From the NCBI RefSeq assembly GCF_964213995.1, contig NW_027590119.1:2852001-2916000 (forward strand): 64,000 nt of DNA, written 5' to 3'. The translations under genes and the position numbers were made by a program. This DNA is from Mustelus asterias (Eukaryota). The first letter of the stretch is position 1, and each line of letters opens with the position of its first letter. The notes beneath the pieces were generated by a model. The model was not told the DNA's origin, made no database searches, and saw only the letters and a list, made by a program, of their open reading frames with translations. Below are positions 9,868 to 64,000 of this stretch, one piece after another.

Positions 9868-10090
9868 ATGGAGAAACCATGGAAATGTGGAGACTGTGGG
9901 AAGGGATTCAGAGCCCCATCTGAGGTGGAATCTCATCGACGCAGTCACACCGGGGAGAGACCGTTCATATGCTCCACTTGTGGGAAGGGATTCAATCATT
10001 CATCGAATCTGCTGAGACACCAGCGAATTCACACTGAGGAGAGGCTAGTCACCTGCTCACAGTGTGGGAAGGGATTCATAGATTCATCCA
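9868..10090 (+). pseudogene. Truncated C2H2 ZNF (unit 2): two fingers plus half a finger
   Basis: [27 protein letters not shown]... breaks after [13 protein letters not shown] into a G tract. Confidence 0.8.
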
Positions 10091-10875
10091 CCCCGGCGGA
10101 GGGGCGGGGGGGGGGGGGGGGGGGGGGGGGGAGCAGGGGGGGAAAGAGAAAGATTGAGAGAGAGAGAAAGATTGAGAGAGAAAGAATCCAACCCCTGTAA
10201 TCGCTTGTGAAATTGTTGGTGTCTCTGCAGGTTGGATGACCGATTGAATCCCTTCCCACACACAGAGCAGGTGAATGGTCTCTCCCCGGTGTGAACTCGC
10301 TGCTGTCTCCGCCGTGTGGATGACCTCCTAAACCTCTTTGAGCAGTGAGAGCAGCTAAACGGTCTCTCGTCAGTGTGAATGGGTTGGTGGACCATCAGTT
10401 CCCCAGAGCTTTTGAAGCCACTCTCACAGTCAGAGCATTTAAAGGGTCTGTCTTGGGTGTGAGTGACCTTGTGGCTCAACAGATTGTTCAACCGAGTGAA
10501 TCCCTTCCCACACACAGAGCAGGTGAATGGCCTCTCCCCGGTGTGAACTTGCTGGTGGGTCAACAGATTGTTCAACCGAGAGAATCCTTTCCCACAGTCA
10601 GAGCAGGTGAACGGCCTCTCCCCGGTGTGAATGCGCTGGTGGGTCAGCAGATTGTTTAACCAAGAGAATCCTTTCCCACACACAGAGCAGGTGAACGGTC
10701 TCGCCCCAGTGTGAACTCCCTGGTGTGTTTGTAAATGGTATAACTGAGTGAATCCCTTCCCACACACAGAGCAGGTGAATGGTCTCTCTCCAGTGTGACT
10801 GTGCCGATGAGTTTCCAGTGCAGATGGGAACCTGAATCCTTTCCCACAGTCCCCACATTTACACAATTTCTCCAT
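10084..10875 (-). CDS. C2H2 ZNF (unit 3), 8 fingers (7th lacks first His); native C-terminus lost, reads through into the G/GA tract
   Basis: ATG of MEKLCKC at 10875. Ends HKRLQGLDS|FSLNL.., whereas paralogs continue GLDSTL.DAVNHIQ*. Confidence 0.7.
10091..10185 (+). repeat. Poly-G / GA-rich tract joining two truncated convergent ZNFs
   Basis: About 25 consecutive G, then GAGAAAGATTGAGAGAGA twice. Confidence 0.85.
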
Positions 10876-11639
10876 GGTGCGGGTGTCCTTGTGACTCTCC
10901 AGGCTTGACAATCAGTTCAGTTACAACATAACATGGGTGCGGTCTCTCTGCTGCAATGTATTTTCAGGCTGTTTAACTGGTTAAAGTTCTTTCCACAGTC
11001 ACTCAGGTGTGTGCATGTTTCAGTGTGTGTGTGTCTCGGTGCTTTTCCAGTCACACTGTTTAAAATCTCCTGAAGCAGACAGAGCAGAGAAACATTTCCA
11101 TTCTAGATTCAAAGGTCGATGATATTCAGGTCCCAATGAACTGAGTGACTATGTTAGATTTTGATGTGAAGTTTGGTTTCATATTCGTCTTTAAATTTTC
11201 TGATATCCTGCAAAAGGAATTTACAAAAGTCATCAGTGTCAGTACAGGATAGAAATTCAGAACAGACAATTCTAGTTTCTATGGAACATTCTTTTCTCTC
11301 TCATTCCTCAAAGCTGTAAATCTCCATCCCACACACTCTCCCTCCATTCTCACTCTGCTGTATCTAATATTCACCCTCCCAATTCTCCTGAAGGTGCTGA
11401 TTGAGGCTGATTGACAGATCCATGCTCACTGCTTCCTGTCCTGGACACAGAGAGAGCTGGAAATTTCCATGCAGGCTGCCAGACAGATAACTGTCTACAT
11501 TACTGGAGTAAAAATGTGTGGAATATACAGACCAAATTCACTTCATTCCCTTCAGTTGCTGCAAGTCCCCAATTTTCCCCAGAATGAGGAAAGAAATGGA
11601 AAGGGGGAAACATTGATTTCCTCCCAGATGTTGCCCAGA

Positions 11640-12126
11640 GGAGGAAGTTTCACTCTGAAGCTCATTGGACAACTTCTGCATTGTGACGTCACGATAGAGT
11701 CCTGCCTGAATCAGCCAATAGGAATCACTGTGCTCCGTGTTGATGTCTCCAGGTTCCAGTGCGCAGGCCCGGGCGCGCGGACCCGGGAGCCCCGCCCCCA
11801 CCCATTGTTCCCCTCCCCCTACACCACATCGAGCCAAGGTTTCCAGGCAACCGGCTGGCGGCTCCGGCCAGAGCGAGAAGCCGCTCGGTGATCGCACCCC
11901 CCCCCGCCCCCCCCAGCCCGGGACTGCAAATGTACGAGGGAGAGGGGAAGCTGCGCATGTGCGGGGGAGAACCCACCCTCTGATCTTCATGTTGAGGTGT
12001 TGACCAATGGGAAGAGTTGGAGGACCGGAAGGACTCTGGTCTTCCAGCCAATCAGAGCGCTTTGTGTGAATGAAGATTGATCTTTAGACAGACTCAAACC
12101 TCCTCCTGTCGCCAACACCTGTGAGT
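11640..12126. promoter_or_regulatory. CpG-island bidirectional promoter/first exons of ZNF units 3 (-) and 4 (+)
   Basis: TGACGTCA at about 11684, several CCAAT boxes, TGCGCATGTGCG. Candidate donor CCAACACCT|GTGAGT at 12120/12121. Confidence 0.7.
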
Positions 12127-13994
12127 GGGAAAGATTGGATTGTCCAGCCAGTCCACCATATTGGCCGTTCGCTTTGCGTGTTGGCCAGTATAGTGTGCTC
12201 CAGGCAGGGGGCGGGCAGAGGATAAGGAGTTCAAGGCGGGCTTAATGCGCGCCTTGCGGTGAGCTTTTGGAAATGTGGCCGCTGGGAGGAACGCCTTGGT
12301 CGGCGTGAAGTTTCTGTTTCAAGTGCTTGGGTTCGTGACTTGTGCAAGAACTTTTTGTTTCGGCTGGGGCTTGTTGAATGCTGCTCTCGCTGGGATTCCT
12401 GTGCCTTGAAAGGCGTGGCCCAGGTAGATGCAATCTCGGAAGACCCAAGCCAGGGAGGAGCCATTTGGGAACTATGGTTTCGGAAGGTTCAGCCGCGGAA
12501 GGTGTGACCCCAGACGGTGCAGCCCCAGTGGGTGTGATTTTGGAAGTTCTGGCCCGGAGTGGTGGACTTTGGAGGACTGTAGTTGAGCGTTGTCGACTTC
12601 GGACGGTGGAATGTTGATGGGCGAAGCTCTGGAAGGCGATGCCTCCGAAATGTTTCACAATTGTATGGTTGTTCATGGATTGTTTGTTATTGTAATATGT
12701 GGTTTTCCTGTTATGATAGTTGGTGGTTTGTTCTGGCCCCCGTCTATTTTCTTGCGTTATTTGTGGCCTGGGGGGCATCCCCCCCTGGATAAAGTCACCC
12801 CCGGGGGGTGTGACATCCACTTGGGGAAAGTTCTGGGTGGTGAAGCCCCGGACATAGTAACACCAGAGGGATTTTTATTCTCCGGGAGAAAAATTGGGAA
12901 GGCAGGCCCGAACTGAGTACCCTGGAGAGACTCTCCCACCACCCCGGCTGAAATTCCGGAAGGCAGTCCGGATTGAGTAGGCGGGGTGGTTTCCCCATTT
13001 CCCCCCTCCGGCTGAACATCCGTAAGGTGTAACCCCCGGATATGAGTACCACTGGAGGGTTGCATCCCCCGGCAGGTGGACAAACCCAGGGGACGGTGCC
13101 CTTATGCTTCAGTGTTTATTTTTTTGTTGTGTACAGTTGTAGTGTTGTTAATGTTTGTAGATTTGTAGATTATGATTTGTAAATGGAGGTGTATTTTGAG
13201 GGCAATGCCCTGGAAAACTGTAATTGACGATGAACCCTTCCGAAATGGAAGGTAGTAATTGATAAATGGATGGTGTTAGCCATCGGTAATGTATTTTTCA
13301 TGGATTGTTTGTTATTGTAATATGTGGTTATCCTGTTATGGTAGTTGGTGGTTTGTTCCGGCCCCCGTCTATTTTCTTGCGTTATTTGTGGCCTGGGGGG
13401 CATCCCCCCCTGGATAAAGTCACCCCCGGGGGGTGTGACATCCACTTGGGGAAAGTTCTGGGTGGTGAAGCCCCGGACATAGTAACACCAGAGGGATTTT
13501 TATTCTCCGGGAGAAAAATTGGGAAGGAAGGCCCGAACTGAGTACCCTGGAGAGACTCTCCCACCGCCCCGGCTGAAATTCCGAAAGGGGTCCCGGATTG
13601 AGTAGGCGGGGTGGTTTCCCCCATTTCCCCCCCTCCGGCTGAACATCCGTAAGGTGTAACCCCCGGATATGAGTACCACTGGAGGGTTGCATCCCCCGGC
13701 AGGTGGACAAACCCAGGGGACGGTGCCCTTATGCTTCAGTGTTTATTTTTTTGTTGTGTACAGTTGTAGTGTTGTGTTAATGTTTGTAGATTTGTAGATT
13801 ATGATTTGTAAATGGAGGTGTATTTTGAGGGCAATGCCCTGGAAAACTGTAATTGACGATGAACCCTTCCGAAATGGAAGGTAGTAACTGATAAATGGAT
13901 GGCGTTAGCCATTGGTAATGTATTTTTTTCACATTTGTTCTTTGTGTATTTGTAATTGTTTTGTATTAACGTATTTGTAATAAACAAAAAGAAA
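12127..13994 (+). mobile_element. 1868-bp 5'-truncated non-LTR-type insertion (possibly a Tx1-clade 3' end) with 15-bp TSD
   Basis: Flanked by CCAACACCTGTGAGT (12112-12126) and CCAACATCTGTGAGT (13995-14009). Ends AATAAACAAAAAGAAA. Family assignment is inference only. Confidence 0.7.
12672..13930 (+). repeat. Tandem duplication, two units of about 625-630 bp, inside the insertion
   Basis: TTCATGGATTGTTTGTTATTG starts at 12672 and 13297. The units are near-identical and give duplicated ORF translations. Confidence 0.95.
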
Positions 13995-14084
13995 CCAACA
14001 TCTGTGAGTAAAACACTTTCCTTTCTCCCCCTTTCCATTTCTTTTTTCATTCTGGGGGAAATTGGGGACTTGCAGCAACTGATC

Positions 14085-15475
14085 ATGAGAAATAGAAGCA
14101 GGAGTGGCCACCAGGCCCTTCAAGCCTGTCCCGCCATTCAGTATAATCACAGCTAATCTATTCCGGCCTCAACTCCTTCACAATGCCACTTCCCATAGCC
14201 CTCTATCCCTCAATCTATTAAATATTTATCCACCTCACTTTAAATACTTCTCATCATCCAGCCTCCACCACCCTCTGGGACAGAGAATTCCAGAGATTCA
14301 CCATCCTCTGCGAAAATAAATTTCTGCGCACCTCAGGTTTAAATGACCGACCCTTTATCTTGTAGCTTGTTTGTGATTCTTCCACTTGTGAAAATATCTC
14401 ACCATCTACCCTGTCAATCCCCCAAGGATCTTATCTGTTTCAATAAACTCACCCCTTTGTCTTCTAAACTTGAAAGAATGCAGATCCAGACAATTTATTC
14501 TCTCCTGTCCTCTTATCCCAGGAATTAGCCTGGTGAATCTCCTTTGGACTATTGCCAATGTTACTATATCCTTGTTTAAGTAAGGGGATCAAAACTGTAC
14601 GCAGTGTTCCAGGTGAGGCCTCACCAACACCCTGTGCAGTTATCACAAAACCTCCCTGCTTTTAAATCCAACACCTTTGCCATAAAGGTCAAAATTCCAT
14701 TTTCCTTCTTACCTATTGTGGAACCTGCCTGCTAGCTTTTTGTGATTCATGCACAAGAACACCGAGATTCCTCTATACTTCAATCACCTGCAGCGCCTCT
14801 CCTTTTAGATAATCTCCCTTTTGAAATACATAGGCGGCACGGTGGGACAGTGGTTAGCACTGTTGCCTCACAGCGACAGGGATCCGGATTCGTTTCCCAG
14901 CTTGGGTCACTGTCTGTGAAGTTTGCACGATCTCCCCATATCTGCGTGGGTTTCCTCTGGGTGCTCTGATTTCCTCTCTGTCTGAAAGACGTGCTGGTTC
15001 GGTGCATTGGCCTGAACAGGTGCCAGACTGGTGACTGGGGGAATTTCACAGTAACTTCATTGCAGTGTTACTGTAAGTCTTACTTGTGACGAATAAATAA
15101 ACTTTAACTTTATGATCTCACACTTCCCCAAGTTCAACTCCATTTGCCAGGTTTTTGTCACCCAATCTATCTGGATCCCATTGCAGAATCAAAATATCCT
15201 CATCACAACATGTCCTTCCACCTATCTTTGTACCATTTGTTAACCTTATATTCTGTTCCTTCCTCCAGGTCATTAATTAAATAATGAACAATTGTGAGCC
15301 AAGAACTGATCCCTGTGGTACTCCACTAGTTACATCTTCCCTCTCTGAAAAGGACCCATTTATTCCAACTTTCTGTTTTCTATGTGACGGCCAGTTTTCA
15401 ATCCATGTGAACACACTTCCACAATTCCATGGGCCTTTACTTTATGCGCCAGCCTCTTCTGCGCCACCTTGTCGA
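14085..15475 (-). mobile_element. Degenerate CR1 LINE, interrupted by a SINE
   Basis: FDKVAQKRLAHKVKAHGI and [11 protein letters not shown]-coding sequence. CR1 tail at about 14090. Confidence 0.8.
14832..15110 (+). mobile_element. V-SINE, tail B
   Basis: GGCGGCACGGTGGGACAGTGGTTAGCACTG head. Ends CTTGTGACGAATAAATAAACTTTAACTTT. Confidence 0.8.
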
Positions 15476-16255: not shown

Positions 16256-16721
16256 GTGGCCTCGCCAGCGATGCCCACATGCCATAAAAGAATGAAAAAA
16301 AGAGAATTGCCTGTTCTGAATTTCACCCTGGTACTGATTTTGTCAACTCCTTTCACAGGATATTAGAAGGTGAGGATCTACAGTCAAAAGTCTCAAACCA
16401 AACGTCACGTCAAGATCTGGCACAGTCACTGAATTCATCAGGAGCTGATTATCATCAGCTTTGGAATCTAGAAGGAGAAATGTCCATCTCTTCTGTTTGT
16501 CCCAAAAGGGTTGAAACGTCAGTGTGATTGGAAAAGCACCGAGACACACACACACCTGAGTGAGAGTGTTCCAGTGCACTGACTGTGGAAAGAGATTTCA
16601 CTTGTTGCACAACCTGGAAAAAACTGCACAATTTGGACCAGGGAGACCGTGCACCTGTTGTGTGTGTGGACAAGTCTTCAACGAATCGTTAAACTTTGAG
16701 AGGCAAAAGGACAGCAGCACC

Positions 16722-17564
16722 ATGGAGAAACCGTGGCAATGTGAGGACTGTGGGAAGAAATGGCGATTCCCGTCTGAGCTGGAAATTCATCGACGCGTTC
16801 ACACTGGAGAGAGGCCGTTTACCTGCTCAGACTGTGGGAAGGGATTTGCTCATTCATGCAACCTGCTGACACATCAGCGAGTTCACAGCGGGGAGAGGCC
16901 ATTCACCTGTTCTGACTGTGGAAAGGGATTCACTCATTTAACCCACCTCCACACACACAAGCGAGTTCACACTGGGGAGAAACCGTTCTCCTGCTCTCAG
17001 TGCGGGAAGGGATTCTCTCAGTTATCCCACCTTCTGAAGCACCAGCGAGTTCATACCAGGGAGAGGCCTTTCACCTGCTCGGAGTGTGGAAAAACATTCA
17101 CTACTTCATGGAACCTGCTGACACACCAGCGAATTCACACTGGGGAGAAGCCATTCACCTGCTGTGCATGTGGGAAGGGGTTCAGTCGGTTATGCAGCCT
17201 GCAGACACACCAGCGAGTTCACACCGGGCAAAAACCATTCACCTGCTCTGAGTGTGAGAAGGGATTCGCTCAGTTATCCCACCTGCTGTCACACCAGCGA
17301 GTTCACACCGGGGAGAGGCCGTTCGTCTGCACCATGTGTGGGAAGGGATTCAGTGAATCATTCACCCTGCTAATACACCAGCGAGTTCACAAGGACGAGA
17401 GGCCATTCACCTGCTCAGAGTGTGGGATGGGATTCACGAAGTCATCCAACCTGCTGACGCACCAACATGTTCACACAGGGGAGAAGCCGTTCACCTGCTC
17501 TGTGTGTGGGAAGGGATACACTCAATTATGCAGCCTGCGCAGGCACCAGAAAGGTCACAAGTGA
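16722..17564 (+). CDS. C2H2 zinc-finger protein, 10 fingers (unit 4)
   Basis: ORF 16560..17564, ATG of MEKPWQC at 16722. Last-exon acceptor TTTCACAG|GATA at 16358/16359. AATAAA at about 17745 and 17977. Confidence 0.9.
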   Translation: MEKPWQCEDCGKKWRFPSELEIHRRVHTGERPFTCSDCGKGFAHSCNLLTHQRVHSGERPFTCSDCGKGFTHLTHLHTHKRVHTGEKPFSCSQCGKGFSQLSHLLKHQRVHTRERPFTCSECGKTFTTSWNLLTHQRIHTGEKPFTCCACGKGFSRLCSLQTHQRVHTGQKPFTCSECEKGFAQLSHLLSHQRVHTGERPFVCTMCGKGFSESFTLLIHQRVHKDERPFTCSECGMGFTKSSNLLTHQHVHTGEKPFTCSVCGKGYTQLCSLRRHQKGHK

Positions 17565-28824: not shown

Positions 28825-29162
28825 TAATTCCCCAAAAGCTGTGAATCTCCATCCCACACACTCTCCCTCCATTCTCACTCTGCTGTATCTAATATTCACC
28901 CTCCCAATTCTCCTGAAGGTGCTGATTGAGGCTGATTGACAGATCCATGCTCACTGCTTCCTGTCCTGGACACAGAGAGCTGAAAATCTCCATTCAGGCT
29001 GCCAGACAGATATATGTCGATGTGACAGGACGAACAATGTGTGGAATGTACAGACTGGATTCACTTCCTTTCCCTTCAGTTGCTGCAAATTCCCAATTTC
29101 CCTCAGAATGAGAAAAGAAATGGAAAGGGGAGAAAAGGAAGTCTTTTACTCACAGATGTTGG

Positions 29163-30840
29163 CCTCTTTTTAGGTCAAACCAAAGAAACAAACTCAAGTT
29201 AAGTCAGGACAAAGTAAAAGGGGCAGCTCCCCAAAAGGAGGGGGGGAACAGCCCGAACAAAAATCAAAGTACAAAGGAAACTTAAAAACATCAAATTAAA
29301 ATGTGATTATTAGGGTCGATAACGCACCCCAACCCCTGCGGTGCCCAGCGGGCGCGGAAGGCGTCAACCGCGCCCATGGACACCGCATGCTCCCTCTCCA
29401 GGGACACCTGGCCGCGAACGTAGCCGCGGTAGAGGGGAAGACAGTCAGGATGGACGGCCCCGTCGATCGCCGGCTGCCTGGACCGGTAAATGGCGCGTTT
29501 CGCCAGGAGCAGGTTCACGAGGAGGTCGCCATCCCGACCCTCCCCTCTCCGCACCGGGTGTCCGTAGATCAGGAGCGTGGGACTGAAGTGCAAGCAAAAC
29601 ATTAATAAACGGTTCTTTCGGAAAACAAAAAGGGAGTGCAACCTAAGACACAAAAGAAAGAAATGGTCCACGGACTCCACAAGGCCGCAGAAAGGGCAGT
29701 CTTCGGAGCCCGTGAACCAGTGAATCCTACGGTTGTGCGGCACTGCTGCATGCATCACCCTCCACCCCAGGTCCCCGACGTAATTGGGGGAGATCCCTCC
29801 GTAGAGGGACCTCCGCCGCCCGGCGGCAACAAGGCCCGCCAAGGTGTATCCGGGCGACAGGTGAGGACGCGGTAGTGGAAGGTGTGCAGCAGCAGCCCGC
29901 ACAGGAAACACCTCCGCGCGGTAGAAAAAGGCACGGAGGACATTTCCGTGAGGCGGCTCAGGCTGTGGGGCACCTCACCCAGGGGAGGGGGCTGAGGCTT
30001 TGGGCCAATGTGGAATTCCGCCCGAACAGGGGAACGCTCGGGCGGGATCCCACCGCACGCCTGCGCCGTCTCGAGTTTGCGTGCAGTTTCGGGGCCGAGC
30101 ACGACCGTCCTAAGGTCTAGGATGGCTTTGGCCGCGCGCCAGACGGATGTCCCAACGCGCTCAGCCAGCACGCGGGGACTCATCCAGCCCGCTCCTCCGC
30201 CATCGAGCACGTCCCCGATTCTGGTCACCCCGGCGTCCACAGCCCCCCTCTCCGCCAGCCACCTGAAGTCATACGGCTGGAGGAGCGGATTCCTGAGCAG
30301 CGGCTCTCGCACGAGAGCCGCTACTCCTGACGGGGGAGAGCTGCGTCGCGAGGCGACCTTGTTCCAGACAGTGAGGAGGTCCTGGTAAAAGACGGGCAAC
30401 TCCTGCAGGGTGGTCGAAGCACGCCCCAGTTCGATATGCAGGGGCTGCAAGTCATAACTCAGGCCGTGCCACTGGCGGAAGAAATACGTCGCCATGGCAC
30501 ACCACTGTGGAGGGGGCTCAACGTAAAGGTACCTCTGCAGGGCCTGGAGGCGGAAGGTCGCTATCTGAATGCGGAGGCACACCAGACCTTGTTCGCCCTC
30601 CTCAAGCGGTAGATGCAGAACCACGGCAGGGACCCAGTGCAGTCGATTGTCCCAGAAGAACCGCAGGAGGGTTCTCTGGATATTGGCAACATGCTACCAA
30701 ATAAACCTGTTGGACTTTAACCTGGTGTTGTGAGACTTCTTACTGTACTGGCAACAAAGCCAGGGGGAGGGGTCAAAGGGACCAGCCGGTACCACAGCAT
30801 GGAGGCGAGCAACTGGTTTATGACGAGAACTCGTGCCCGT
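29163..30840 (-). mobile_element. Tx1-clade LINE, 5'-truncated ORF2 3' part plus 3' UTR
   Basis: RVLVINQL..SMLWY, FFW..LHW..VLHLPLEEG.QGL, CPFCGLVESVDHFFLLC zinc knuckle, LAKRAIYRSR, FRARW. One frameshift at about 29800. 3' UTR ends AAAAAGAG. Confidence 0.9.
30692..30748 (+). mobile_element. 57-bp Penelope terminal fragment inserted in Tx1
   Basis: CCAAATAAACCTGTTGGACTTTAACCTGGTGTTGTGAGACTTCTTACTGT flanked by TGGCAACA (30684-30691 / 30749-30756). Confidence 0.8.
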
Positions 30841-31165: not shown

Positions 31166-31460
31166 TGTGGTGAACCATCGTTGGTTCACCACTGGGGTTT
31201 GTTACCATGTTACTGTTGGGCTAGGGTGTTATTACTGTGGGGGTTGTACTATGTTGTTGGGTTAGGGTGTTTACCTGTTATAAGTGTTACCATGGCACAT
31301 TCCAGTGGGGTCCCGCCTCCGGTGGCAGGGTATAAGACCCCCTGCTCCGGCAGGACCCCTTCAGTCTGAACTGGTGTATTCGTGTTAGTAGTTTCATTGT
31401 TACTGTATTAAAGCCTTCAATACTAAAGCCTTGATTCCATGTGCTCATTGACGCGCATCA
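31166..31460 (+). repeat. 5' LTR
   Basis: TGTGGTGAACC...GCGCATCA. TATAAG at about 31331, ATTAAA at about 31407. Confidence 0.97.
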
Positions 31461-31483
31461 ATTTAATACAGTAAACAGAGAGT

Positions 31484-34400
31484 ATGGAACAGATTCTAAA
31501 ACCGGATCGTCTGACACTGGACCCACGTGCGGTCGGTGCAGCTAACACATTCGACCATTGGTGGAAGTGCTTTGAGGACTACCTGGCAGCCTCGGTAGCT
31601 ATCACTACGGACAGTGATAGACTCCAGGTCCTCCACGCGAGGGTAAGCGACACGATTTACCTAGCCATTCGTGCAGCTCCCACTTACCAGGGTGCCGTCG
31701 AGCTCCTAAAGAATAGGTACATTACGCCACCCAACGAGATACATGCTCGTTACCTCCTCGCTACACGACGTCGGCAGTCAGGCGAAACCATAGAGGATTA
31801 TGCCAATGAGCTCCTGCAGCTTGCCAGGGGTTGCGACTGTAAGGACGTCTCCGCCGAGCAGTACATGTACGACCTCGCCCGAGACGCGTTCGTAGCAGGG
31901 GTAGGGTCCTCGTACATCAGGCTTAAATTACTAGAAAAGGGGAAACTCAACTTGACCCAGGCAATGGGGATGGCCGCGAGGTTGGAGGCGGCGTCGAAGA
32001 GCTTGGCGCTGTACCCCGAGGACCACGTGCAGTCAACGTGGTTGGAGCAAGCTCTGCTCCCTCCTCGCCCCGCGAACCCGCGCTCCCAGATCGATTCGAC
32101 GACGGCGGCAGCTCCAGGTGGCCAGCGATGCTATTTTTGCGGTGGGGCCAAGCATCCACGGAAACAGTGTCCGGCAAGAACGGCAATCTGCAGCCAGTGC
32201 GGTAAAAAAGGCCACTACGGCAAAGTCTGTAGGTCCAGACCTAAAAACGGCAGTGCAGTTTGTAACCCTCCAGAACGGAGACCATCTCTTTCGGCGTTGC
32301 AGTACCCACGAGGTCCGACCACGTGCGATCTCAGGACGGCGCCATCGTGGCAAACAGAGGAGGAGGAAGACCACCAGGAGTCGCTGCGCTTGGCGCCCTC
32401 GCCCACGTGCGATTCATGGGGGCGGCCATCATGGTCCACGACGACTAGGAGCGACCAGCAGGGGTCCTCAGCATCCACATCGGCAGCATGCAGTGACGCC
32501 CAGGGGCCAACGGTGGCGTCGATCTCTCTGGACCAGACCAGGCATTACAGACTGGAACATTCTATGATGGAGGTAAAGGTTAGTGGCAGAACTGTGAATT
32601 GTCTGTTTGACAGTGGGAGCACCGAAAGTTTCATACACCCTGAAACTGCTAAAAGGTGTGGACTCCGGATTCTCCCTGCCAAACAGACAATTTCCATGGC
32701 ATCACAGTCCCGGTCTGTACCGATCCAAGGACGATGTATGGTAACTCTTGAGGTACAGGGCACAGTTTACGAGCAATTCAGGCTCCTTGTGCTACCTCAC
32801 CTTTGCGCGCCAATTATCCTCGGACTAAACTTTATGGTCCACATGAAGAGTGTGATCCTACAGTACGGTGGGCCACTCCCTTCACTGGCAGTAGGGAACC
32901 AGCCGCAGCCTCCAAATTGCCCAAAGCGCCCCGCGTGCAATCTATCCATCCTGAAGATCACGACACCATCCCTTTTTAAAAATCTGGTACCTGGCTGCAA
33001 GCCCATCGCTACTAAAAGTAGGCGTTACAGCGCTGAGGACCGGATCTTTATTAGATCTGAGGTTCAGCGGCTCCTCAAGGAAGGGATCATACAGGCCAGT
33101 GCTAGTCCGTGGAGAGCGCAGGTCGTGGTAGTCAAAAGCGGGAACAAACCTCGGATGGTCATCGACTATAGTCAGACCATTAATAGATACACGCAGCTGG
33201 ATGCGTATCCTCTCCCGCGCATTTCTGATATGGTCAATCAGATTGCGCAGTACCGAGTGTTTTCTACCATAGACCTTAAGTCCGCCTACCATCAACTCCC
33301 CATCCGCCCAGAGGACCGACAATATACGGCCTTTGAGGCGGATGGTCGTCTATACCAATTCCTCAGGGTTCCATTTGGTGTCACCAATGGGGTCTCGGTC
33401 TTCCAGCGTGCTATGGACCGAATGGCGGACCAGAATGGGTTGCGGGCTACCTTCCCGTACCTGGATAACGTCACCATCTGCGGCCATGACCAGCAGGACC
33501 ACGACACGAATCTCCAACACTTTCTGCGCGCTGCATCTCGCCTGAATCTGACCTATAACAGGGAGAAGTGCGTATTCCGTACGCGTAAGTTAGCCATTAG
33601 GGCGGCACGGTAGCACAGTGGTTAGCACTGCTGCTTCACAGCTCCAGGGTCCCGGGTTCGATTCCCGGCTCGGGTCACTGTCTGTGTGGAGTTTGCACAT
33701 TCTCCTCGTGTCTGCGTGGGTTTCCTCCGGGTGCTCCGGTTTCCTCCCACAGTCCAAAGATGTGCGGGTTAGGTTGATTGGCCAGGTTAAAAAATTGCCC
33801 CTTAGAGTCCTGGGATGTGTAGGTTAGAGGGATTAGCGGGTAAAATATGTGGGGGTAGGGCCTGGGTGGGATTGTGGTCGGTGCAGACTCGATGGGCCGA
33901 ATGGCCTCCTTCTGCACTGTAGGGTTTCTATGATTTCTTTCTATGATCCTCGGATACGTGGTGGAAAACGGGGTCATTGGCCCTGATCCAGACCGTATGC
34001 GCCCACTCACTGAACTTCCCTTGCCCGCTAGCACGAAAGCACTGAGGAGATGCCTCGGGTTCTTTTCGTATTATGCACAGTGGGTCCCCAACTACGCGGA
34101 CAAAGCTCGTCCGCTCATTAAGTCCACGACCTTCCCACTTACGCCGGAGGCCCAATTGGCCTTCAAGGTTTTGAAAAGCGACATCTCGAAAGCCACGATG
34201 CACGCGGTGGATGAATCCATCCCTTTCCAGGTGGAGAGTGATGCATCTGACTTCGCCCTAGCCGCCACACTAAACCAGGCAGGCAGGCCCGTCGCGTTTT
34301 TTTCCCGCACCCTTCAAGGCCCAGAGATTCGGCACTCAGCGGTGGAAAAGGAGGCTCAGGCCATTGTGGAGGCAGTCAGACACTGGCGCCATTACCTGGC

Positions 34401-35829
34401 AGGTAAGCGGTTCACCCTGATCACGGATCAACGATCCGTGGCGTTTATGTTCAATAACACGCAGAGGGGCAAGATCAAGAACGATAAGATCTTGCGGTGG
34501 AGAATTGAGCTCTCCACCTATAATTACGATATTATGTATCGTCCAGGGAAGCTCAATGAGCCCTCGGATGCCCTCTCGCGCGGAACATGCGCCATCATGC
34601 AGGAGGACCGCTTGAAGGCTCTCCACAATGATCTGTGTCATCCTGGAGTCACCAGACTCTACCACTTCATCAAAGCCCGCAACCTGCCCTACTCGGTGGA
34701 GGAGGTCAGGTCAGTAACTAGAAGCTGTCGGATTTGCGCAGAATGCAAACCACACTTTTATCGACCAGACCGGGCACATTTGGTCAAGGCCACTCGCCCT
34801 TTTGAGAGGCTGAGTGTGGATTTTAAGGGCCCCCTTCCCTCAACGGACCGGAATGTCTATTTTCTCAATATAATAGACGAATATTCCCGGTTTCCGTTTG
34901 TTTTCCCCTGTGCGGACACGTCAACTGCCACCGTCATCAAGGTTTTCAGTGAACTTTTTACCCTGTTCGGGTACCCCTGCTATATTCATAGCGACAGGGG
35001 CTCGTCGTTCATGAGCAACGACTTGAGGCAATTCCTGCTCTCATTCGGGATTGCCTCTAGTAGAACCACGAGCTACAACCCTAGGGGTAACGGACAGGTG
35101 GAAAGGGAGAATGCTACAGTCTGGAAGGCTGTCCTACTGGCATTGAAATCCAGGGGCCTTCCAGTCTCCCGTTGGCAGGAGGTCCTTCCAAATGCGCTCC
35201 ATTCTATCCGCTCCCTCCTGTGTACGGCAACCAATGCTACTCCCCACGAGAGGATGTTCTCATTCCCTCGGAAGTCGTCCTCGGGGACCTCATTGCCAGC
35301 CTGGTTGACGTACCCAGGACCCGTCCTTCTGCGGCGCCATGTGAGGGCTCGCAAGTCCGACCCCTTGGTCGAACCGGTCCAACTCCTCCACGCCAACCCT
35401 CAGTATGCCTATGTGGCATATCCTGACGGGCGAGAGGACACTGTCTCCATTAGAGACCTGGCGCCCGCAGGGGACGTAGCAACCCCTGTCGCTCCTATTC
35501 CCCCAGTCACAAATCCACTACTCCTCATTACTTCCCCAGACGTGGCGCGGTCAGCACCGGGACCAGTGCATAACACTTTTACTCCCATGTACAGCTTGCC
35601 TGAGACTCGGAGATCGGCGCCACCATCATCACCACCACCACCACTACCACCAAACGTTCCAGGATCCCCTGCACCATCGCCTCACCAGGGCCGGCCGGCC
35701 CGGGAGTCCTTGAAGGGACAGCCACACGTTACTTGGAGAGAACCACTACAAGCACCTGATCCGGTTTCGCAACCGGTGTTGAGGAGATCGCAGCGTCGGT
35801 GCGGTCCTCCAGACCGTCTGGACTTGTGA
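31484..35829 (+). pseudogene. gag-pol polyprotein (1331 aa when the SINE is removed), disrupted in RT
   Basis: Double CCHC knuckle CYFCG..H..CPA..CSQC.K.GH..C, protease LFDSGS, RT IDLKSAY / PFG / YLDN, RNase H ESDAS, integrase HHCC and D,D,E. Deleting 33598-33947 restores KLAILGY in frame. Confidence 0.95.
33598..33947 (+). mobile_element. HE1-like V-SINE inserted in Gypsy RT
   Basis: Full head, core and tail. Only a 2-bp AT duplication or microhomology. Confidence 0.95.
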
Positions 35830-35901
35830 ATCCTGTGATTTTTTTTTGTTATTGTCTGTTTTCGTCCACCCCGCCACCTTTTGTCTTAAAGGAGGGGTGA
35901 A

Positions 35902-36196
35902 TGTGGTGAACCATCGTTGGTTCACCACTGGGGTTTGTTACCATGTTACTGTTGGGCTAGGGTGTTATTACTGTGGGGGTTGTACTATGTTGTTGGGTTA
36001 GGGTGTTTACCTGTTATAAGTGTTACCATGGCACATTCCAGTGGGGTCCCGCCTCCGGTGGCAGGGTATAAGACCCCCTGCTCCGGCAGGACCCCTTCAG
36101 TCTGAACTGGTGTATTCGTGTTAGTAGTTTCATTGTTACTGTATTAAAGCCTTCAATACTAAAGCCTTGATTCCATGTGCTCATTGACGCGCATCA
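35902..36196 (+). repeat. 3' LTR
   Basis: No differences from the 5' LTR seen by eye. Identical ORF translation in the track. Confidence 0.97.
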
Positions 36197-41199: not shown

Positions 41200-44100
41200 T
41201 GGGAATCAAATTGTTGTCTAATTGTCCCAGCAGTTAACAGGCTCCTTTGAACGTCTCCAGCTGCTACTTTGATGCAGACTTCAACCAATTTATTTTAAGC
41301 CAGTTTCTGTTCAATAAACCAGGACTGACACACACACACATTAAAATGTTTTAGACTTTTTTGCATTTTTAGTCTGGAAACCTAAACCTGCCGTTTCACT
41401 CTCAGTCAGGAATAGATCCCAGTTTTACACCAATCTTTGACAGCACGTTTCCAGCATTCACCATTGTTCTTCCTAACTCTAAACACAGTTGTAAAAGAGC
41501 TTCTGTTCCGTGTCTCGGAGCTCGGAACCATGGAAAAGAACGACTGGGACACATTTCTCACACACCTCAGGATTCACCCACACGGGGACTTTGCTGTCAG
41601 TGAAAAGTGACGAAAAAGACCAAAGTGCTGTTTGTCCCTCTCAGCGAGACCCTGAAGGACTGGGTCAAGAATGAAGTTCTGTTCCTACTGTGTGACCCTC
41701 CCTCAGATTGCCCTTTCTGAGCTCCAGCCTGGTGACGTTAAACACTCAAATGAAAAAGACAAAAATCTACAACAATGATTCAATCAAATGTCTATTTCAC
41801 ATTTATTCAGAATATCAAACCTCAACAGAAGAAAAAAGTCAGAGTGAAGATGATTCAGACCTGGATATGATTAACAGCATCGATAAGTGTAGAATCCAAA
41901 CCTTGCAGTCGTTTGTGAACTCGCCGGTGTGTTAGCAGGTGGGATGACTGAACAAATCCCTTTCCACAGACATTACAGGTGAACGGCCTCTCCCCAGTGT
42001 GAACTCGCTGGTGTTTCAGAAGATAAGAGAAATGAGAAAATCCCTTCCCACAGACAGAGCAGGTAAATGGCCTCTCCCCACTGTGAACTCTCTGATGTGT
42101 CAGCAGGTTGGATGACTGACTGAATCCCTTCCCACACATGGAGCAGGTGAACGGCCTCTCCCCAGTGTGAACTCGCTGGTGATTCAATAGGTTGGATGAA
42201 CGAGTGAATCCCTTCCCACATACGGAGCAAGTGAATGGCCTCTCCTCACTGTGAACCTGCTGCTGTGTCAGAAGGTTGTATGAACGGGTGAATCCCTTCC
42301 CACATTCAGAGCAGGTGAACGGTCGATCCCCTGTGTGGAGTTGCTGGTGTATCAGAAGGTTGGATGAATTAATGAATCCCTTCCCACAGTCTGAGCAGGT
42401 GAAGGGCCTCTCCCTAGTGTGAATTCTCTGGTGGTTCAATAGGGCAGATGGACGGCTGAATCCCTTCCCACACACACAGCAGGTGAATGGCCTCTCCCCA
42501 GTGTGAGTATATTGGTGCGTCAGCAGATCTTTTTTATTTTTAAAGCTCTTCTCACAGTGGGAACAATTAAAAAGTTTGTTATCAGAGTGAACAAGTTGAT
42601 GTGTCTGCAAGTGGGATGACTGAATGAATCCTTTCCCACACACACAGCAGGTGAACGGTCTCTCCCCAGTGTGAATACGTTGGTGCGTCAGCAGATCTTT
42701 TTTGCATTTAAAACTCTTCCCACAGTCAGAACATGGAGACAGTCTCTCATCAGTGTGAACAAGTTGGTGTGTCACAATGTGGGATGAGCGAGTGAATCCC
42801 TTCCCACACACAGGGCAGGTGAACGGCCTCTCCCCAGTGTGAACCCGTTGGTGAGTCAGAAGGTTGTATGAATGGGTGAATCCCTTCCCACAAACAGAGC
42901 AGGTGAACGGTCTCTCCCCAGTGTGACTGCGCTGATGAACTTCCAGTTGTGATGGGAAACTGATTCCTTTCCCACAATCCACACATTTCCACTGTTTCTC
43001 CATGGTGCTGGTGCCCTTGTGTTTCTCCAGGTTGGATGATCAGTTCAAGCCTCATCCACACACACAACATACACGTAGTTTCACCCTGCTGTGAACTGTG
43101 ATTTTTTTTCAGGCTGTGTAACTGGTTAAAGCTCTTTCCACAGTCGGTTCACTGGAACACTCTCACTCGGGTGTGTGTTTGTCCTGCTGCTTTTCTGGTC
43201 ACACTGATGTTTAATTTCTTTGCCCACAGGCAGAACAGACAAATATTGCTCCTTCCATATTCAAAGACCGATCATATTCAGCTCCGAAGGAACTGAATGA
43301 CTTTGTCAGATGTGATGTTCGGTTTGAGTTTTCTGTCTGCCATTCCTTCACTTTGAATATCCTGTAAAAACAGTTTAGAAAAGTCATCACTGTCAGAACA
43401 GGATAGAAACTCTGAACAATTCTAGTCTTTCTGGAACATTTTTTCCTTTCTTGTTCCCCCAAATCTGTAAATCTCCGTCCCACACACTCTCCCTCCTCCT
43501 TGGGCTGAAATCCAAACCCATCTCACCATTTCTTTCCTCCACTCCCAGTTTTCTCCCTCCCTCTCCTCTGTCTGGGTTCAGTTCTCCAGCTCCTGTCTGT
43601 AGACTGACAATAAAACCAATGGGTCTTATTGGGGGTGTTGGGGCCTCCAGCGGGTGTTTGTGAATCCTCCCCGCCCACCTCCCAGGGTTTCCTTCCTTCC
43701 CAGAGATCAGAGTCCTCATTGATTTGAGGCCAAAGTGTAACCTCTTATTTATTGTCCCCCTCCCCCATCCTCTGATGTGAACCATCCTCCAGTGGCTGAG
43801 CCAGGATGGGGCCGTTAACCTGGGCCTGTTCCCGGGAGGGAGGGAGGGAGAAGCCCCGCAGCTGCAAACCAGGGAGCTGACAATGATTCTGAAGGGTTTG
43901 CGGATCCACAAAGTGTTTCCAAATCCTCCCAGCCACCGCCTAACGCTGACTCCGCTTCTCCGGGACAAACAAGCGCCAAGGACAGCAATGACACTGCGCA
44001 TGCTCCACATCACAATGCCCGGGGACTGATTGACGGCAGCTCCGGACCAATAGGAAGAGGGGGCGGGACTGGAGGACCGAGCGGGAGCGGCTGGTCCTCC

Positions 44101-44244
44101 AACCAATCGGAGTGAATGAGGGGCGGGGCCTGAAGCATGCGCAGTGCGGGTAATGGCGACGGACGGACGGTTTTAACTCGGTAGCGAGATCAATACGAGG
44201 TAGAGGGCGGCGTGCGAGGAATGATAAATGTGGCGGGTGGGTGG
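41200..44244. repeat. Segmental duplication copy A (ZNF unit 6 with 3' UTR, intron and promoter); copy B at 60880-63746
   Basis: Collinear from TGGGAATCAAATTGTTGTCTAATTG to AATGTGGCGGGTGGGTGG. Confidence 0.95.
41855..43003 (-). CDS. C2H2 zinc-finger protein, 13 fingers (9th lacks first His) (unit 6)
   Basis: 382-aa ORF starting MEKQWKC. Confidence 0.92.
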
Positions 44245-45430: not shown

Positions 45431-46339
45431 TGATTGACAGATCCATGCTCACTGCTTCTTGCCCTGGATGCAGAGAGCTGAAAATTTCCATGCAGGCTGC
45501 CAGACAAATAAATGTCTACATTACTGGAGTAAAAATGTGTGGAATATACAGACCGAATTCACTTCACTCCCTTCAGTTGCTGCAAGTCCCCAATTTCCCC
45601 AGAATGAGAAAAGAAATGGAAAGGGGGAAACATTGATTTCCTCCCAGATGTTGTCCAGAAGAGGAAGTTTCAATCTGAAGCTCATTGGACAACTTCCGCA
45701 TTGTGACGTCACAATGGAGCCTGCCTGAATCAGCGAATAGGAATCTCTCTTCCGACATCAAGAGCTGATGTTTCTTGTCTCGATGACCCTTTGTCAAAGC
45801 TCTGAAACATCAGTTCTTTTCTCTCCATACAGATGCTGCCAGACCTGCTGAGAATGGGGAGACAGTGTGTGGGATGGAGATTTACAGCTTTTGGGGAATG
45901 AGAGAGGCAAGAATGTTCCATAGAAATTGTCTGTTCTGAATTTCTATGCTGTACTGACACTGATGACTTTTGTAAACTCGTTTTACAGGATATTGAAAGA
46001 GGAATCACAGGCCGAAATCTCAAACGTCATGTCTAGACGTGACAGAGTCATATTCCTTGGGACCTCAATATCATCGGACTTTGAATCCAGAAGGAGAAAT
46101 GATTGTCCAGTCTGTCGATTTGAAAAGATTTGAAATGTCAGTGTGAGTGAAAAAGCATCAACACACTGCCACACTTGAGTGAGAGTGTTCCAATGCACTG
46201 ACTAAAGAGCTTTAACCAGTTACACAGTCTGAATAAATATCACACCATTCACAGCGGGGAGAGACTGTAATCTTGTTCTGAGTGTGGGCGAAGTTTCAAC
46301 TAATTGTCCAGTCAAGAGAGAGGTAAGGACACCTGCACC

Positions 46340-62498: not shown

Positions 62499-63349
62499 GG
62501 TGCGGGTGTCCTTGTGTTTCTCCAGGTTGGATGATCAGTTCAAGCCTCATCCACACACACAACATACACGTAGTTTCACCCTGCTGTGAACTGTGATGTT
62601 TTTTCAGGCTGTGTAACTGGTTAAAGCTCTTTCCACAGTCGGTTCACTGGAACACTCTCACTCGGGTGTGTGTTTGTCTCGATGCTTTTCCGGTCACACT
62701 GATGTTTAATTTCTTTGCCCACAGGCAGAACAGACAAATATTTCTCTTTCTATATTCAAAGACCAATGATATTCAGCTCCGAAGGAACTGAATGACTTTG
62801 TCAGATGTGATGTCCGGTTTGAATTTTCTGTCTGCCAATCTTTCACTTCCAATATCCTGTAAAAACAGTTTAGAAAAGTCATCACTGTCAGAACACGATA
62901 GAAACTCTGAACAGACAATTCTAGTTCGTCTGGAACATTTTTTCCTCTCTTGTTCCCCCAAATCTGTAAATCTCCGTCCCACACACTCTCCCTCCTCCCT
63001 GGGCTGAAATCCAAATCCATCTCACCATTTCTTTCCTCCACTCCCAGTTTTCTCCCTCCCTCTCCTCTGTCTGGGTTCAGTTCTCCAGCTCCTGTCTGCA
63101 GACTGACAATAAAACCAATGGGTCTTATTGGGGGTGTTGGGGCCTCCAGCGGGTGTTTGTGAATCCTCCCCGCCCACCTCCCAGGGTTTCCTTCCTTCCC
63201 AGAGATCAGAGTCCTCATTGATTTGAGGCCAAAGTGTAACCTCTTATTTATTGTCCCCCTCCCCCATCCTCTGATGTGAACCATCCTCCAGTGGCTGAGC
63301 CAGGATGGGGCCGTTAACCTGGGCCTGTTCCCGGGAGGGAGGGAGGGAG

Positions 63350-63746
63350 AAGCCCCGCAGCTGCAAACCAGGGAGCTGACAATGATTCTGAAGGGTTTGC
63401 GGATCCACAAAGTGTTTCCAAATCCTCCCAGCCACCGCCTAACGCTGACTCCGCTTCTCCGGGACAAACAAGCGCCAAGGACAGCAATGACACTGCGCAT
63501 GCTCCACATCACAATGCCCGGGAGCTGATTGACGCCAGCTCCGGACCAATAGGAAGAGGGGGCGGGACTGGAGGACCGAGCGGGAGCGGCTGGTCCTCCA
63601 ACCAATCGGAGTGAATGAGGGGCGGGACCTGAAGCATGCGCAGTGCGGGTAATGGCGGCGGCGGACGGACGGTTTCAACTTGGAAGCGAGAACAATACAA
63701 GGTAGAGGGCGGCGCGCGGGGAATGATAAATGTGGCGGGTGGGTGG
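63350..63746. promoter_or_regulatory. CpG-island promoter of unit 9
   Basis: Near-identical to 43850-44244. Confidence 0.7.
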
Positions 63747-64000
63747 CCTTCAAAAAGAATACGGCCCGGCCGGACATCTTAGAGGCCGCGACAATGGCTG
63801 AGGGGCCGACAACCCCAGCCATTGCCTTGACACAGGCCTCGATGGACATGTCGGGGTGGGCGTAGCACTTAACCCCGAGCTGCCGCGTGAGCAACGAAAA
63901 AGGTGGCAGGGCCTTGGGAGCGGCGGGGGCTCTGGTAGCCGCCACGCCCGCATAGGTGGGCCGAGAAGGCTCTGCCACGGCAGGGCGTATAAGAGGAGGG
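63747..64000 (-). mobile_element. Tx1-clade LINE ORF1 N-terminal fragment (runs off the window)
   Basis: TYAGVAA..LTRQLGVKC..MSIEACVKAMAGVVGPSAIVAASKMSGRAVFFLK, typical of the Tx1 ORF1 start. Confidence 0.8.

Follow-up and report, generated by a model that had tools for sequence, protein, structure and literature searches.

C2H2 zinc-finger (ZNF) genes are clustered in the window (the entire 64-kb stretch of DNA analyzed), which belongs to a genome of 3.68 Gb; its SINEs, we presume, resemble those of cartilaginous fish. One of the genes has a non-coding exon 1 and, in its last exon, an intact, Met-initiated ORF (16722-17564) that encodes 280 aa with 10 C2H2 fingers. Its CpG-rich promoter core (Table 1) is arranged head-to-head with a minus-strand ZNF gene (10084-10911), and CCAAT boxes are located behind the core, near 12005 and 12048. 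Located at the end of exon 1 is a 1868-bp element that is framed exactly by 15-bp copies of one sequence, CCAACACCTGTGAGT before and CCAACATCTGTGAGT after. The 15-bp duplication contains the donor CCT/GTGAGT, in agreement with an initial annotation that described the element as flanked by a duplication of the first ZNF splice donor. The target motif has two matches only in the 64-kb window, and these are the two flanks of the element. The C/T mismatch between the copies most likely arose after insertion because C261, which carries a duplicate of this locus, has it, and C140, with a near-identical promoter, has T. The initial annotation also placed the element in the sense of the ZNF gene, as confirmed by the host coding exon on the same strand, and about 100 bp behind a CpG promoter; the promoter was correctly recognized but the distance was not, as the CpG-rich stretch ends ~160 bp before the element. 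Behind 14082, the host intron is replaced by repeat fragments, and contig loose ends fall at this position.

Table 1. Positions of the host gene, the inserted element, its target copies and the Tx1 fragment in the window.
Feature	Position	Strand	Remarks
CpG-rich promoter core	11760-11970	+	GC 0.73, CpG o/e 0.73; homologous promoter in other hosts
Non-coding exon 1 of host C2H2-ZNF gene	12060-12120	+	Putative start; end from homologous gene
Upstream target copy	12112-12126	+	Donor 12120/12121; C at 12118 is a variant common to the duplicate locus on C261
Non-coding retroposon, 1868 bp	12127-13994	+	Head 12127-12668, two units, U-rich tail
Probable poly(A) signal	13979-13984	+	Sole AATAAA of the element; five TGTA motifs before
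Downstream target copy	13995-14009	+	Second donor 14003/14004
Native intron-1 start	14010-14082	+	Conserved in paralogues
Host coding exon	16359-17564	+	Acceptor 16358/16359
Target GCCAACATCTGTGAGT of paralogous ZNF gene	29148-29163	-	Directly behind Tx1 tail
5'-truncated Tx1 ORF2 fragment	29164 to ~30840	-	Tail abuts target of paralogous ZNF gene

Also present in the window are paralogous exon-1 modules (11552-11657 and 45573-45653, minus strand) in which the donor is GGGAGG, not GTGAGT; this variant is also abutted by a Tx1 tail in L147. ZNF genes at 43039-44200 and 62534-63780 (minus strand) have another promoter type and are recent duplicates of each other. A Gypsy-like LTR retrotransposon (~31166-36195) has two near-identical LTRs and a gag-pol frame (31475-33613, 33934-35829) that is split by a SINE.

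The element comprises a head of ~540 bp and an internal tandem duplication (12669-13298 and 13294-13927, ~625 bp each, 97% identical), and its 3' terminus in the window is AATAAACAAAAAGAAA. A one-unit form of 1240 bp is common among copies, and all full-length copies begin GGGAAAG and end AAAAGAAA. Pfam gave no match for the two element ORFs tested. The best E values from tblastn of Tx1 ORF1 and ORF2 against the element were 0.14 and 0.42, respectively, and blastn of the element against three Tx1 copies gave a best E of 4.9 and no common 3' tail either. The initial annotation likened a short ORF end of the element to the end of Tx1 ORF2, but tblastn does not align this ORF end with the ORF2 C-terminus, and from the tblastn, blastn and Pfam results we attribute the likeness to chance.

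Several other classes were considered and rejected. The element is not a Tx1-clade LINE or a deleted derivative of one, as it lacks ORF1 and ORF2 and has no ends in common with the Tx1 copies tested, nor does it form a stringent SINE-LINE pair with Tx1, given the lack of a 3' tail common to its partner. A SINE with a tRNA, 5S, 7SL or snRNA head was rejected because an Rfam scan of 11600-14200 found no small-RNA head; nothing reached the gathering level, and two weak snoRNA matches fell below the gathering score. An LTR reading, with TG at 12120 and CA at 14000, fails because the flanks lack a repeat and other copies end at AAAAGAAA. For the LTR or solo-LTR class as a whole (TG...CA ends, 4-6-bp duplications), both the ends and the duplications of 12-18 bp are wrong. 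An introner is excluded by the presence of a donor at both ends and by an acceptor that belongs to the host. The element has the properties of a LINE-mobilized non-autonomous retroposon, namely target duplications, 5' truncation, a fixed A-rich 3' end and no coding capacity.

Use of the first-exon site as a working donor in a homologous gene is supported by a contig of X1 that leaves exon 1 behind 12121 and continues with ATATCAGAAG..., the coding-exon start of the window paralogues. This evidence is from one run, guessed to be RNA, and concerns the homologous gene of another organism label rather than the window allele; within that scope it bears out the earlier view of the site as a splice donor. 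Pieces of the element (~96-97% identity) are present in X1 and X2.

In the genome, a 21-letter pattern that spans the donor and the beginning of the intron is matched exactly 855 times, compared with 0 for the reversed control. At 55 of 60 donor sites fetched, an array of three or more fingers lies downstream on the same strand within 9.7 kb (median near 2 kb). Exact matches to the element number 183 for its 3' end and 181 for its 5' end genome-wide. CTGTGAGT stands directly before 175 of the 181 5' ends, which therefore retain an upstream donor, as the initial annotation described for the copy in the window. The target core follows 102 element 3' ends (found with a slightly shorter pattern than in the 183-match search). 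These copy counts are from exact pattern searches; a score-ranked DNA search that included the first target base has biased flanks. The element lies directly upstream at 30 of the 855 intact donor sites, all 30 having the same non-coding family, and a Tx1-type tail is found at 247, a count that includes tiny stubs and a tRNA-Arg-headed passenger. On-target copies are mostly full length and occur in head-to-tail stacks of up to 12 units, with one target copy between units. These data support a retroposon family with a strong preference for the multicopy ZNF donor. The earlier interpretation of a retroelement at a multicopy site holds for the preference but not for an autonomous retroelement, as the element is a non-coding passenger.

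Targeting is leaky, not exclusive. When the first 100 listed 3' ends are sorted by location, the ZNF site accounts for 32, a solo-LTR-like repeat for 37 and junctions with the element's own head for 5, with 26 elsewhere. Of these ends, 87 were retrieved and the remaining 13 lie within an array on C19 (without them, the LTR-repeat count is 24); the list is in contig order, which over-represents large chromosomes, and 27 of the 100 belong to one C19 array. Behind arrays in L069, L076 and L082 is a short spacer with a tRNA-Asp or tRNA-Gly gene, not a ZNF intron.

The insertion is structurally self-hiding, given a non-coding exon 1, a donor retained upstream and an ORF located in the last exon: an occupied gene would usually splice out the element with intron 1 via the upstream donor. 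A single Met-ORF contains all fingers in 12 of 19 hosts occupied by the element, compared with 5 of 16 empty hosts and 9 of 18 Tx1-tailed hosts, a crude measure for which duplicates were kept. The sample included 20 of the 30 element sites, 20 of the 247 Tx1-tailed sites and 20 other listed sites; visual inspection led to the removal of three of the latter, which had a Tx1 tail, and of loci with fewer than three fingers. By this measure, occupancy is not accompanied by greater decay of the host.

Alternatively, the element could act as a trap behind an active promoter, diverting transcripts to its own poly(A) site and lowering host expression. Family redundancy would then absorb the damage, and the duplicated donor would be a by-product of nick geometry. 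The single sense AATAAA is in fact used, as poly(A) tracts were copied right behind the element 3' end at three junctions (C18, C71 and C75), and this argues against a fully harmless site. In combination with two acceptor-like sites (AG at 13136 and 13763), this signal could truncate host transcripts. Element sequence is present in X6 and X7, which look RNA-like by low intron cover, and X6 includes an unspliced contig across the upstream junction (12115-12274). Moreover, the near-full-length Tx1 copies L191 and L196 are at the donor site without a rebuilt upstream donor, and a second Tx1 subfamily is found inside exon 1, so hiding is not required for family success. We nevertheless consider such a trap rather unlikely, as ORFs are intact at least as often in occupied as in empty hosts, the upstream donor is retained at nearly all 5' ends (see above), and retrocopies spliced from exon 1 to an internal acceptor have 0 genome matches. 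In addition, poly(A) sites are open to suppression by U1 that occupies a donor close by (PMC3694450). It is a matter of speculation that the downstream donor copy, 25 nt behind the AATAAA start, damps the signal via U1 in the same way. Splice junctions at 14003 were absent from the contig rows listed, which is not evidence of non-use, and none tied to an occupied allele was present in the assembled contigs examined. The sequencing runs are assembled contigs, which cannot measure expression, and the search of X6 and X7 was dominated by SINE contigs and yielded no usable joint.

Tx1 is the only autonomous family seen at the site, and it has the same junction. Many intact Tx1 copies encode an ORF1 with a CCHC knuckle and a 1297-aa ORF2 with APE and RT; the fragment in the window is ~95% identical to an intact copy (L179 versus the duplicate L203). 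The L179 ORF2 is 48% identical, with 100% coverage, to the Xenopus Tx1L ORF2 (YTX2_XENLA). With an APE+RT ORF2 closest to Tx1L and a CCHC ORF1, this partner is classed by similarity as a Tx1-clade LINE. Of 10,501 candidates, the best 150 were scored, and the 30 loci that scored highest include 18 whose end falls at the donor or, ~50 bp before it, within exon 1 (counted by eye; six are copies of one insertion). By the criterion of PMC4494074 (>20% of flanks), the Tx1 partner prefers a multicopy target. Most of the intact copies recovered are inserted ~50 bp upstream of the donor, in exon 1, and older-looking copies are at the donor, where the ORFs of the three near-full-length copies examined are disrupted. 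Element and Tx1 tails are also stacked at a single site.

The Tx1 LINE is the likely motor of the element. The partnership is read from the common site and junction because the element and the Tx1 copies tested have no sequence in common. The missing common tail, and the restriction of scoring to the best 150 candidates, would also fit movement by another, unseen LINE family with the same 3' tail as the element, or an element that is itself an internally deleted LINE. We judge this improbable: all 30 element-type sites carry the non-coding family and lack ORF2 in the 1.5 kb examined upstream, Tx1 alone among autonomous families shares the junction, and SINEU-1 is likewise without a LINE of the same 3' end in the account given in PMC4494074.

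At the start of full-length Tx1 copies is a tRNA-Val-like sequence, which ARAGORN identified as tRNA-Val(GAC) in L080, L081, L091 and L095; in L179 (1509-1640), L191 (3409-3490) and L196 (2494-2612) the likeness was seen by eye. An internal GTGAGT lies behind this head, and in one Tx1 subfamily a diverged exon-1 copy lies before it; apparently, both a tRNA head and the target itself were captured by the LINE. Also identified at the donor is a short passenger consisting of tRNA-Arg(ACG) and ~50 bp ending in a Tx1 tail (L171:9330-9480, L332, L334, L339, L342, L346), probably a Tx1-tailed SINE. At the edge of the window (63784-64000, minus strand), a Tx1 ORF1 start that by eye is like the L179 ORF1 is broken off beside a ZNF promoter.

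The element occurs in many independent hosts. The 36 array 5' ends with enough flank form 22 promoter clusters at 93%, and element heads have a median identity of 98.5% (630 pairs), which drops to 83% in the terminal 60 bp of exon 1 and to 50% in the distal promoter. Given these clusters, and heads far more alike than their flanks, the copies of this young element are not derived from one old insertion. Part of the copy number is DNA-level duplication. The window locus is duplicated on C261 and C118, the C140 array of 12 units opens with four or five distinct ones before an exact ABAB stretch, and six of 10 exact matches to the Tx1 tail in the window are copies of one insertion. These duplicates, together with the existence of chimeric hosts, could be explained by the spread of a few ancestral insertions through segmental duplication, unequal crossing-over and gene conversion in ZNF clusters, without sequence-specific targeting, but this explanation is largely refuted and highly improbable given the 22 promoter clusters, in which divergence of the flanks greatly exceeds that of the elements, the differing 5' truncation points, the several different passengers at the same base, and the 5-18 substitutions over 1.1 kb that separate the first units of the C140 array.

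Dispersed off-target copies are 5'-truncated, and many have 12-18-bp duplications, a signature of target-primed reverse transcription. The internal junction at C71 contains, in order, the element end, GCC, the poly(A) tract, a 54-bp piece of exon 1 that includes the donor, and the next element; this exon-1 copy places an RNA 5' end ~45 nt before the donor. An element subfamily occupies one position of the ~280-bp solo-LTR-like repeat at seven loci, with its own tandem arrays. The repeat has CCAAT, TATA-like and AATAAA motifs and TG...CA ends (L241 and L278, C3; L273-L277, C13, C16 and C26), and further loci of the subfamily are L271-L272 (C19), L033 and L039. Full-length copies in the repeat (C3, C13, C16, C19 and C26) are far from ZNF clusters and carry a 5' exon-1 remnant. 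In four aligned copies, a stretch identical to the host extends past the TATA-like box and then switches to a common leader, as expected if cDNA anneals to a homologous target. Distal promoters of C107 and C89 are near-identical, yet there are 6 mismatches in the last 60 columns of exon 1; C118 and C127 differ at 3 of these columns and have unrelated distal promoters. Exon-1 ends are swapped between hosts with disagreeing distal promoters, with DNA gene conversion as an alternative cause. The C71 junction, the exon-1 remnants in the LTR repeat and the exon-1 swaps indicate that the element is probably transcribed from the host promoter and that the exon-1 leader and a few downstream bases may travel in the RNA. 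The upstream donor would thus have two sources: the RNA-carried leader, and staggered nicks, the latter shown by short stubs with a full duplication (C160, L127 and L132).

Bases downstream of the element may also influence where it lands. Of 15 independent off-target copies typed at one marker, 8 of the 9 that have the LTR-subfamily allele landed at sites starting with TCC; for the ZNF-type allele the figure was 1 of 6 (Fisher p 0.011). The starting set was 28 off-site 3' ends, of which 10 were too short or diverged to type, two were inside ZNF loci and one was a duplicate and was dropped. These allele-specific landing sites match the bases downstream of the source copies. Pairing between primer and RNA affects L1 priming (PMC3649969). 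An older variant of the element on C23 (L195, L197 and L199) differs in its 5' head, which is ~170 bp long and is terminated by a diverged target copy ahead of element position 119; heads may thus be gained by stacking at the target.

We consider it probable that the element is a young, non-coding retroposon that inserts preferentially at the first donor of a C2H2 ZNF family (at least 855 sites), has a copy of the donor on either side, and probably relies on a Tx1-clade LINE with the same target for copying in trans. RNA polymerase II would start at the host ZNF promoter, pass through unspliced exon 1 and read through the element, with polyadenylation at the element AATAAA ending the RNA just inside the downstream target copy. 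The nick made by Tx1 ORF2p would fall 9-10 nt upstream of the donor, with priming aided by the few read-through bases that terminate the RNA. A second nick, 6 nt into the intron, would produce the duplication that rebuilds the upstream donor. The exon-1 leader of the cDNA could anneal to exon 1 of the new host, giving exact full-length 5' ends and sometimes replacing the end of the host exon. Each insertion would recreate the target and so permit stacking, and DNA-level duplication would then lengthen the arrays. As exon 1 is non-coding and the last exon holds the ORF, gene function would be preserved at occupied loci provided that the upstream donor is spliced faster than the element poly(A) site is used.

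A broader reading, offered tentatively and with more doubt than confidence, is that a vertebrate Tx1 system homes on the first donor of a protein-coding gene family, about one-third of whose sites are occupied, and that RNA flanks carry the address of its passengers. The leader would fix the 5' junction and rewrite exon 1, read-through bases would bias priming, and one subfamily would owe its move to a solo-LTR promoter to the capture of new flanks. Donor duplication would both hide the insertion and damp its poly(A) signal via U1.

A donor target at 855 or more ZNF gene sites, ~1/3 of them occupied, adds protein-coding gene starts to the landing sites of retroelements. It provides a natural, young, high-copy system for asking whether donor duplication makes an insertion neutral, to what extent the target is chosen by RNA flanks instead of the endonuclease, and whether zinc-finger genes exchange promoters and first exons through retrotransposition. 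Targeted gene insertion could also profit from an APE endonuclease that has a defined vertebrate target of 15 bp.

Dewa is a Tx1-clade LINE with a tRNA-spacer target. Other target-specific members of the clade include Xenopus Tx1L (target Tx1D), Keno (U2), and Kibi and Koshi (microsatellites), and the Tx1 targets named in PMC4494074 are RNA genes, microsatellites and other transposons. Titles and the starts of abstracts gave no Tx1 target in zinc-finger genes; Repbase entries or the supplements of PMC4494074 could contain such a family. The likely motor shares with Tx1-clade LINEs an APE+RT ORF2 (48% to Tx1L), a CCHC ORF1 and a multicopy target. Here, the target is exon 1 and the donor of C2H2-ZNF genes, and the element itself encodes no protein.

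Closest in organization are SINEU-1, SINEU-2 and SINEU-3 of crocodilians, non-autonomous passengers that are paired with Tx1-Mar by their target. As described in PMC4494074, SINEU-1 lacks a common 3' tail, tandem copies sandwich a 15-16-bp duplication, and 5' extensions suggest transcription from flanking DNA, all as seen here. SINEUs are mostly <500 bp, have U1 or U2 heads and target a Mariner transposon (PMC4494074). The element described here, in contrast, is 1.2-1.9 kb in length, is without a small-RNA head and targets the donor of a protein-coding gene family.

R2, R1 and SART1 borrow a promoter from their target gene, and flanking target sequence in their RNA aids 5' joining and 3' priming. 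The borrowed target promoter and the help of flanks at both ends are features in common with the element. Co-transcription and flank-assisted integration of R2, R1 and SART1 are mentioned in PMC4494074. Unlike these systems, the host here is a Pol II-transcribed protein-coding gene and the passenger would act in trans, and one subfamily seems to have reached a second target through the capture of flanks. SVA, whose 5'-transducing MAST2 subfamily likewise borrows a promoter, is similarly a non-coding Pol II retroposon of ~2 kb that has an internal repeat and a leader from a host exon; SVA uses L1 and has dispersed sites, with no homing back to the donor gene family (PMC4494074). Finally, introners also escape from mRNA through splice signals linked to insertion, but they create new introns (PMC12130899, PMC11282704), whereas the element in these zinc-finger genes enlarges an existing intron by duplicating its donor.
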